A program made the position numbers and the translations under genes. A stretch of 64,000 nt of DNA. It comes from Ginglymostoma cirratum. Lineage: Eukaryota. A model generated the notes under the pieces. That model made no database searches and was not told the DNA's origin. It saw nothing but the letters and a program-made list of their open reading frames with translations. This document shows, one piece after another, positions 25,450 to 26,058 of this stretch. Numbering within the stretch: position 1 is the first letter of the stretch; every line of letters begins with the position of its first letter. The stretch covers positions 34,955,047 to 35,019,046 of the forward strand of contig JAHRHZ010000140.1 of NCBI GenBank assembly GCA_024137785.1, written 5' to 3'.

Positions 25450-26058
25450 AACAAAAAAGCAAAGAACTCTGGATACTGGAAATTTGAAACAAAATCAAAA
25501 ATTGCTGGGAAAACTCAGCAGCTCTGGCAGCATCTGTTGAGAGAAATCAGAGTTAACATTTTGGGACCACTGACCCTGCTTCAGAACTAATTGTAGCGAT
25601 GAAAAGGTTGGTATACATATGCTAGAGAAGGGTTGGGGGTGGGGCGGGGGCTGCTGCGAGGGAGAAGGCGTAAGTGATAGGTGGCAATGGAGCCCAGAGA
25701 GAGAGAAAACTGGTTGGGCAGACAAAGGAATGAGTGATGGTCAGCCTGGGAGAATAAATAGCTGCTAATGGGGACCGTTAGTGGCAAACAATGAGATGGT
25801 TGTGGTAGCAGCTCATATGATGACAAGGCCTGGTGTTTGGAGGTTGAGGTAAGGACATGGGAGAAGGTGCTCAGGCCCTGAAATTATTGAACTCGATATT
25901 TGAGTCCAGAAGGTTGCAGGGTTCCCAAGTGCACAATGAGGTGGTGTTCCTTCAGCTTGCGCTGAGCTTCGCTGGAGCATTATAGCAAGCCCGAGACAGA
26001 GATGTTGGCCAGGCAGCACAGTGGTTTGTTGAAGTGGCAGGCAACTGGAAGCTCTGGT
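25450..26058 (-). mobile_element. Penelope-like retroelement 3' end: GIY-YIG endonuclease C-terminus plus terminal repeat with a hammerhead-like motif
   Basis: Minus strand 26057-25871 reads PELPVACHFNKPLCCLANISVSGLL*CSSEAQRKLKEHHLIVHLGTLQPSGL/NIEFNNFRA*. Downstream on the same strand, 25588-25551 reads agtt-CTGAAGc-agggtc-agtg-gtccc-aAAAtGTT-aact. Confidence 0.85.

Follow-up and report, generated by a model that had tools for sequence, protein, structure and literature searches.

On the minus strand of the 64-kb window (the whole stretch of DNA that was analysed), positions 25448-26055 hold a 608-bp insertion derived from a Penelope-like element (PLE), 5'-truncated and mutated. Read in the direction of the element, it starts with the C-terminal c. 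60 codons of a Penelope-type GIY-YIG endonuclease (25871..26055), recognized by peptide homology, and continues with a pyrimidine-rich 3' untranslated region, or upstream part of the terminal repeat (25589..25870), which is high-copy in all of the four runs. A decayed minimal type I hammerhead follows (25551..25588), and then a terminal tail of about 100 bp (25448..25550), which ends in a run of T, is common to the short repeats and is the highest-copy part of the element. The insertion is flanked by an exact 10-bp target-site duplication, overlooked in the first-pass annotation, whose 5' copy on the minus strand lies at 26056..26065 and whose 3' copy lies at 25438..25447. The repeat depth stops at about 26057-26060, and the last 2-3 bases of 26056..26065 may be microhomology with the element.

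The number of contigs mapping to 25200-26400 ranged from 4,011 to 35,121 per run, nearly all of them within 25446-26060; the flanks of this interval showed almost no contig pile-up, as against thousands per run inside. One contig, from a run guessed to be RNA, covers 25526-25843 with two differences, and was not taken as evidence of expression. Duplications of 9-13 bp were found around six of the seven copies examined, and 14 of 2000 random zone pairs reached 9 bp; it should be noted that the duplication zones were picked after the repeats were known, and that the random-zone control therefore flatters the six-of-seven result. Target duplications of 8-10 bp are reported for rotifer PLEs (PMC3846280), and the 25448-26055 copy shows both the target-site duplication and the 5' truncation that characterize PLE insertions. 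Its 3' junction is spanned by contigs of organism A (13 differences in 329) and of organism C (26 in 310), and, because the junction is common to both, the insertion is older than the A/C split. The composition of the window (about 39% GC, CpG observed/expected ratio 0.22) is that of a methylated vertebrate genome.

The endonuclease remnant and the parent element

The minus-strand GIY-YIG C-terminus described in the first-pass annotation was confirmed by the protein search. In a single minus-strand frame, PVACHFN begins at 26048 and EHHLIVHLGTLQPSGL ends at 25902, with the endonuclease codons starting at 26057/26054 rather than at 26058. After one extra base at about 25901, the sequence continues in the next frame as NIEFNNFRA-stop (25900-25871), the stop being the TGA at 25873-25871. 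An in-frame TAA at 25982-25980, absent from the earlier account, also interrupts the remnant.

The corresponding 52-residue peptide, with an X at the stop, gave 47 matches at E ≤ 0.001 among 1.84 billion representatives, the top one with E 6.5e-15 and 79% identity. The closest three come from whale shark gene models, and sharks, skates or rays are the source of eight of the ten protein matches that were looked up, which makes a shark the likely host. Short or chimeric gene models account for many of the matches, several of the top ones are chimeric, and four of the 47 look like false, repetitive matches. The YIGE[TS] half of GIY-YIG lies upstream of the matched part in 12 of the 47; seven of these 12 also contain a separate C-x4-C-x2-C linker ahead of the C-terminal endonuclease, a count that leaves out three pattern matches falling inside the GIY-YIG motif. 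The Pfam GIY-YIG model was matched at E ≤ 0.01 by nine of the 47 proteins, four of which were above the cut-off. On the fragment itself, taken in the correct frame, Pfam gave no relevant match, and a candidate DUF1540 (E 0.13-0.17) was rejected. The C-terminal GIY-YIG expected of a PLE is thus recognized by homology to its C-terminal part only, the full motif being present in matched proteins, and a stop codon ends the ORF. The endonuclease tail is also contained in three skate or ray gene models, annotated as neuromedin-U receptor 1 (P0009), a NYAP1-like protein (P0017) and a DUF4518 protein (P0015), where it likely represents annotation artefacts or exonised pieces of PLEs.

The claim that the segment is the 3' end of a PLE held up as well. 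Reverse transcriptase (RT) motifs, linker and endonuclease are joined in P0048 from Stegostoma, in P0049, and in P0038, which comes from sea urchin (P0048 and P0049 are two of the 148 candidates), and in the tBLASTn search with PLE proteins that had been proposed as a check, P0048 matched the 25448-26055 locus with E 1.2e-11. The 64-kb window yielded no PLE RT at E ≤ 0.1, and the 608-bp copy is truncated; as it has no RT, it cannot be an autonomous parent. A LINE-type RT remnant with a stop, present at 50362-50772 on the plus strand (tblastn E 3e-33 with the RT part of P0008), is not related to PLEs.

Penelope/Poseidon elements are described as having lost the CX2-5CxxC linker, of which Nematis has a reduced version (PMC8557442), and the presence of the linker in the relatives therefore makes Neptune the likely clade of the parent element. 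This assignment comes from the relatives and not from a tree, because the fragment contains neither RT nor linker nor the GIY-YIG motif itself. A parent from another endonuclease-positive clade, i.e. Nematis or Penelope/Poseidon, would be compatible with a window fragment devoid of linker and RT, with the garbled linker region of P0003 (the closest long match), with the substitution of the last linker cysteine in P0048 and with the reported paraphyly of Neptune (PMC8557442). Seven relatives, however, carry before their C-terminal endonuclease a linker that those clades have lost or reduced, and such a parent appears improbable.

A decayed hammerhead and its family

The hammerhead-like motif quoted in the first-pass annotation is present letter for letter at 25588-25551, on the same strand as the endonuclease. 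In a structural model taken from the relatives, helix I (AGUU/AACU, 25588-85/25554-51) has 4 bp, and the core occupies 25584-78, with C3 at 25584 and A9 replaced by C. An unpaired A (25577) separates the core from helix II (25576-72/25567-63), in which four of the five pairs are formed and a U-U mismatch is found at 25566, so that the motif is indeed a minimal type I hammerhead with helix I and a near-complete helix II. The remaining core sites are G12, changed to A (25562), C15.2, changed to U (25558), and U17 (25555), which belongs to a GUU cleavage site. The core starts 286 nt after the endonuclease stop.

With A9>C, G12>A, C15.2>U and the helix II mismatch, the catalytic core of the 25.5-kb copy is not intact, and a strict minimal-hammerhead descriptor had no match in the 64-kb window. 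The change G12A alone is reported to slow cleavage more than 500-fold in a minimal hammerhead and about 10^6-fold in a full-length one (PMC2553840); judged on this ground, the hammerhead is very likely inactive, in line with its first description as probably dead. Rfam gave no match in the window either, but this blank is uninformative, since Rfam also missed four loci bearing intact motifs. Single-strand folding indicated no significant structure in any of four copies (z from -1.28 to 1.72). The presence of the 3' junction in organisms A and C might suggest that the 25.5-kb copy was kept because the host had recruited it as a working ribozyme or a regulatory RNA. Considering the G12A and A9C core changes, the helix mismatch and a folding no better than that of shuffles (z 0.69), and that sharing across species is expected of any old neutral insertion, this is extremely unlikely.

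The letters of the family to which this copy belongs (family 1) were taken as depth-weighted contig shares in the four runs, which are biased to the letters of the window and are not copy counts. Expressed in this way, A9 accounts for 85-92% and the helix II A for 90-97%. N7 is split between A and G (41-53%), as expected for the one free position of the hammerhead core. Of the two CpGs, the first has G12 in 29-43% and shows the opposite product of deamination in 8-13%; for C15.2 and its opposite product at the second, the corresponding figures are 22-34% and 8-11%. Both letters, G12 and C15.2, are in the minority in the contigs aligned across them, and contigs clipped at the second CpG carry opposite products. 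The occurrence of three states at each CpG supports decay at both of them. The proposal that the copy had decayed by this route is therefore valid for the two CpG changes, but does not extend to A9>C and to the helix II change from U-A to U-U, which are non-CpG damage. Taken position by position, the family letters contain all the elements of a minimal type I hammerhead (CUGANGA, a paired helix II with G10.1-C11.1, GAAA, a palindromic helix III and UH); an intact family-1 hammerhead in one piece was not seen, the count in the window being zero.

Hammerheads were also searched for beside related endonucleases in 80 metagenome loci, in 64 of which the end of the endonuclease could be located, with at least 400 nt beyond it in 45. 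A strict minimal hammerhead lies on the sense strand 97-214 nt downstream of the endonuclease in nine of these 45 loci, and on the antisense strand in none; the strict descriptor detected no motif in the other 36. A looser scan of all the 80 loci returned 19 sense and five antisense motifs. The unpaired A is present in 18 of the sense motifs, GAAACGU in 17, and U17, as in the 25.5-kb copy, in three. Once five near-duplicates were left out, the alignment of the remaining 14 had 82% paired cells, versus 62% for shuffled and 20-42% for slid controls, and two-sided changes in six of the eight pairs, a covariation that is inflated by relatedness. The window copy and the nine loci with a strict motif show the sense-strand hammerhead in the terminal repeat after the ORF that is typical of PLEs. 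Antisense hammerheads upstream of the ORF match (L003:1052-1095, L055:853-896 and L033:273-316) are as expected, because PLE insertions may have inverted terminal repeats at their 5' end.

A covariance model trained solely on hammerheads adjoining related endonucleases in the metagenome contigs placed the 25.5-kb motif second of 21 window matches (16.6 bits, rough E 0.018), after the 4.2-kb motif (20.3 bits) and before the 39.5-kb one. A match at 4660-4712 (15.0 bits), which has no tail, was treated as probably due to chance, its margin below the 25.5-kb motif being thin. As for the other copies, the 11-kb one reached only E 2.3, and those at 42 and 35 kb were absent from the matches.

Short repeats and a proposed route of insertion

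The first-pass annotation had also seen in this copy the parent of the short hammerhead-bearing repeats elsewhere in the window. This is correct at the level of the family for the repeats at 11.1, 39.5 and 42.5 kb (78-86% to the 25.5-kb copy), but not for those of a second family (4.1 kb and nested at 39.4 kb). Among the family-1 repeats, the copy at 11132..11236 (plus) consists of hammerhead and tail, at 82% to the 25.5-kb copy, between 11-bp duplications (11121-31/11237-47). The insertion at 39341..39631 (minus, 86%) combines an inverted tail piece with a forward hammerhead copy within an outer 9-bp duplication, and hosts a nested family-2 piece; the copy at 42491..42648 (plus, 78%) has a short inverted tail piece ahead and a 9-bp duplication.

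Family 2 is represented by the hammerhead repeat at 4099-4230 (minus), with a short helix II loop, C17 and a 13-bp duplication (4086-98/4231-43), and by the nested tail piece at 39365-39448, which is opposite in orientation to its host copy and has an exact 12-bp duplication (39353-64/39449-60). The two are 69-74% to the 25.5-kb copy and 90% to each other. P0048 reads through its own 3' region, and its end peptide agrees with the translated 4.1-kb hammerhead in nine of 14 residues, which suggests that family 2 descends from a separate Neptune-type parent. A more decayed hammerhead-plus-tail repeat at 34855-34945 (minus), with no duplication above 5 bp, is possibly a third family.

The depth over hammerhead and tail is tens of times that over the endonuclease part, a contrast that also reflects likeness to the 25.5-kb copy, and it falls 2.9- to 4.8-fold from 25585-88 to 25589-92, immediately 5' of helix I, where the loose ends are heterogeneous; a mismatch of the 25.5-kb copy at 25589 may add to this drop. 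Such a profile, along with the duplications that the short copies have of their own and with a preprint deriving animal retrozymes from PLE terminal repeats (10.64898/2026.07.22.740005), could mean that the short hammerhead repeats are a non-autonomous family of their own (SINE-like, or solo retrozyme monomers), amplified from short RNAs of that family with PLE proteins acting in trans, in which case the 608-bp copy would show their origin only. We regard this as unlikely, considering that tandem arrays of the unit are absent from the window, that two of the three family-1 short copies have the inverted tail pieces typical of PLE insertions (PMC8557442; PMC3846280), that short copies retain both sides of the cleavage site, and that the depth contrast depends in part on likeness to the 25.5-kb copy.

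The short copies begin sharply at their 5' edge, for which a transcription start, a splice acceptor or an RT stall would each be a sufficient cause. The context of this edge at about 25588, TCAGTT, resembles an initiator consensus. It is conceivable, if rather doubtful, that the helix I edge is a transcription start or a fixed reverse-transcription stop, and that each short repeat is a complete cDNA. If this were true, the short repeats would extend from the point where the RT starts internally to the 5' end of the RNA, and internal initiation would have left a massive in vivo footprint in shark genomes, by which both ends of the PLE template could be mapped without experiment. In Drosophila virilis, helix I marks the end of an intron (PMC4209133), and the start is located farther upstream (PMC2377424). 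Just past the hammerhead, at 25546-25531 (minus), a pyrimidine tract ending in CAG and followed by ATG is conserved in the family-1 copies; the ATG after this splice-acceptor-like tract (25533) was rejected as an ORF start, as a stop follows after 12 codons.

We therefore read 25448-26055, with a probability of about 0.9, as the old and mutated remains, lacking the 5' part, of a Penelope-like retrotransposon present in high copy number. The element probably belongs to the Neptune clade, target-primed reverse transcription is the likely mode of insertion, and the hammerhead of this copy is expected to be inactive. In the Anolis element PAc, the protein nicks DNA and reverse transcription begins in the tail, at an internal point of the RNA; the template is mainly uncleaved RNA, and hammerhead cleavage is protein-assisted and dispensable for insertion in vitro (PMC11167929). 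By analogy (PMC11167929; PMC8557442), an RT-endonuclease protein would have nicked the target and started to copy within a tandem transcript, where a terminal repeat ends. Copying would then have run back through the hammerhead and the 3' region and halted after about 608 nt, within the endonuclease gene, and repair would have left the target duplication. The template would have been uncleaved RNA, since the 25.5-kb copy spans both sides of the cleavage site. Dimers of PLE minimal hammerheads are reported to have low activity (PMC4209133). The intact family hammerhead would be slow, acting probably only as a dimer through its self-complementary ACGU, or with the help of a protein. Methyl-CpG deamination and other substitutions probably disabled the 25.5-kb hammerhead later, and the short family-1 repeats are likely to come from the same machinery, halted at the 5' edge of the hammerhead.

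Comparison with known systems

The 608-bp copy is an ordinary genomic fossil, and carries little weight by itself as one decayed member of a described class: its architecture is already published (PMC4209133; PMC8557442), and the combination of PLE and hammerhead is treated as standard in reviews (PMC6765202). A literature search, to which Repbase and Dfam were external, returned no paper on a shark PLE hammerhead by title. The annotation link is of more use, as an abundant short shark repeat is now tied to a Neptune-type PLE. In addition, as both ends of the copied RNA are preserved in many dated copies, the family could inform on the role of the PLE hammerhead and on the ends of short copies.

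Animal non-LTR retrozymes have a type I hammerhead akin to that of PLE terminal repeats and are reported in the one chondrichthyan that was sampled (10.64898/2026.07.22.740005). They are, however, tandem arrays with at least two intact hammerheads, whereas the window shows single or inverted copies, and the 25.5-kb one is a single decayed hammerhead attached to coding sequence.

PAc belongs to another clade, Poseidon, and its ORF starts at stem II, no such start being evident here. In both, the hammerhead lies close to where the terminal repeat ends on its 3' side, with a tail of about 100 nt behind it, and the inserts carry the motif uncleaved (PMC11167929).

Compared with the minimal hammerheads described for PLEs (PMC4209133), helix II is shorter (5 bp, versus 7-8 bp in Schistosoma), and the 25.5-kb copy differs in U17, with its GUU site, and in the core mutations. 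It shares with them the short helix I, the unpaired base between 9 and 10.1, the G10.1-C11.1 pair, the palindromic 15.2-16.2, a helix III without loop and the occurrence mostly as solo dispersed copies.

Finally, compared with Neptune PLEs (PMC8557442), only the last c. 60 codons are present here, and no microsatellite target was seen at the 25448-26055 insertion site. The features in common are a C-terminal GIY-YIG with conserved H...R...E...N, frequent 5' truncation, inverted terminal pieces, a hammerhead within the terminal repeat and, in the relatives of the present copy, the cysteine linker.
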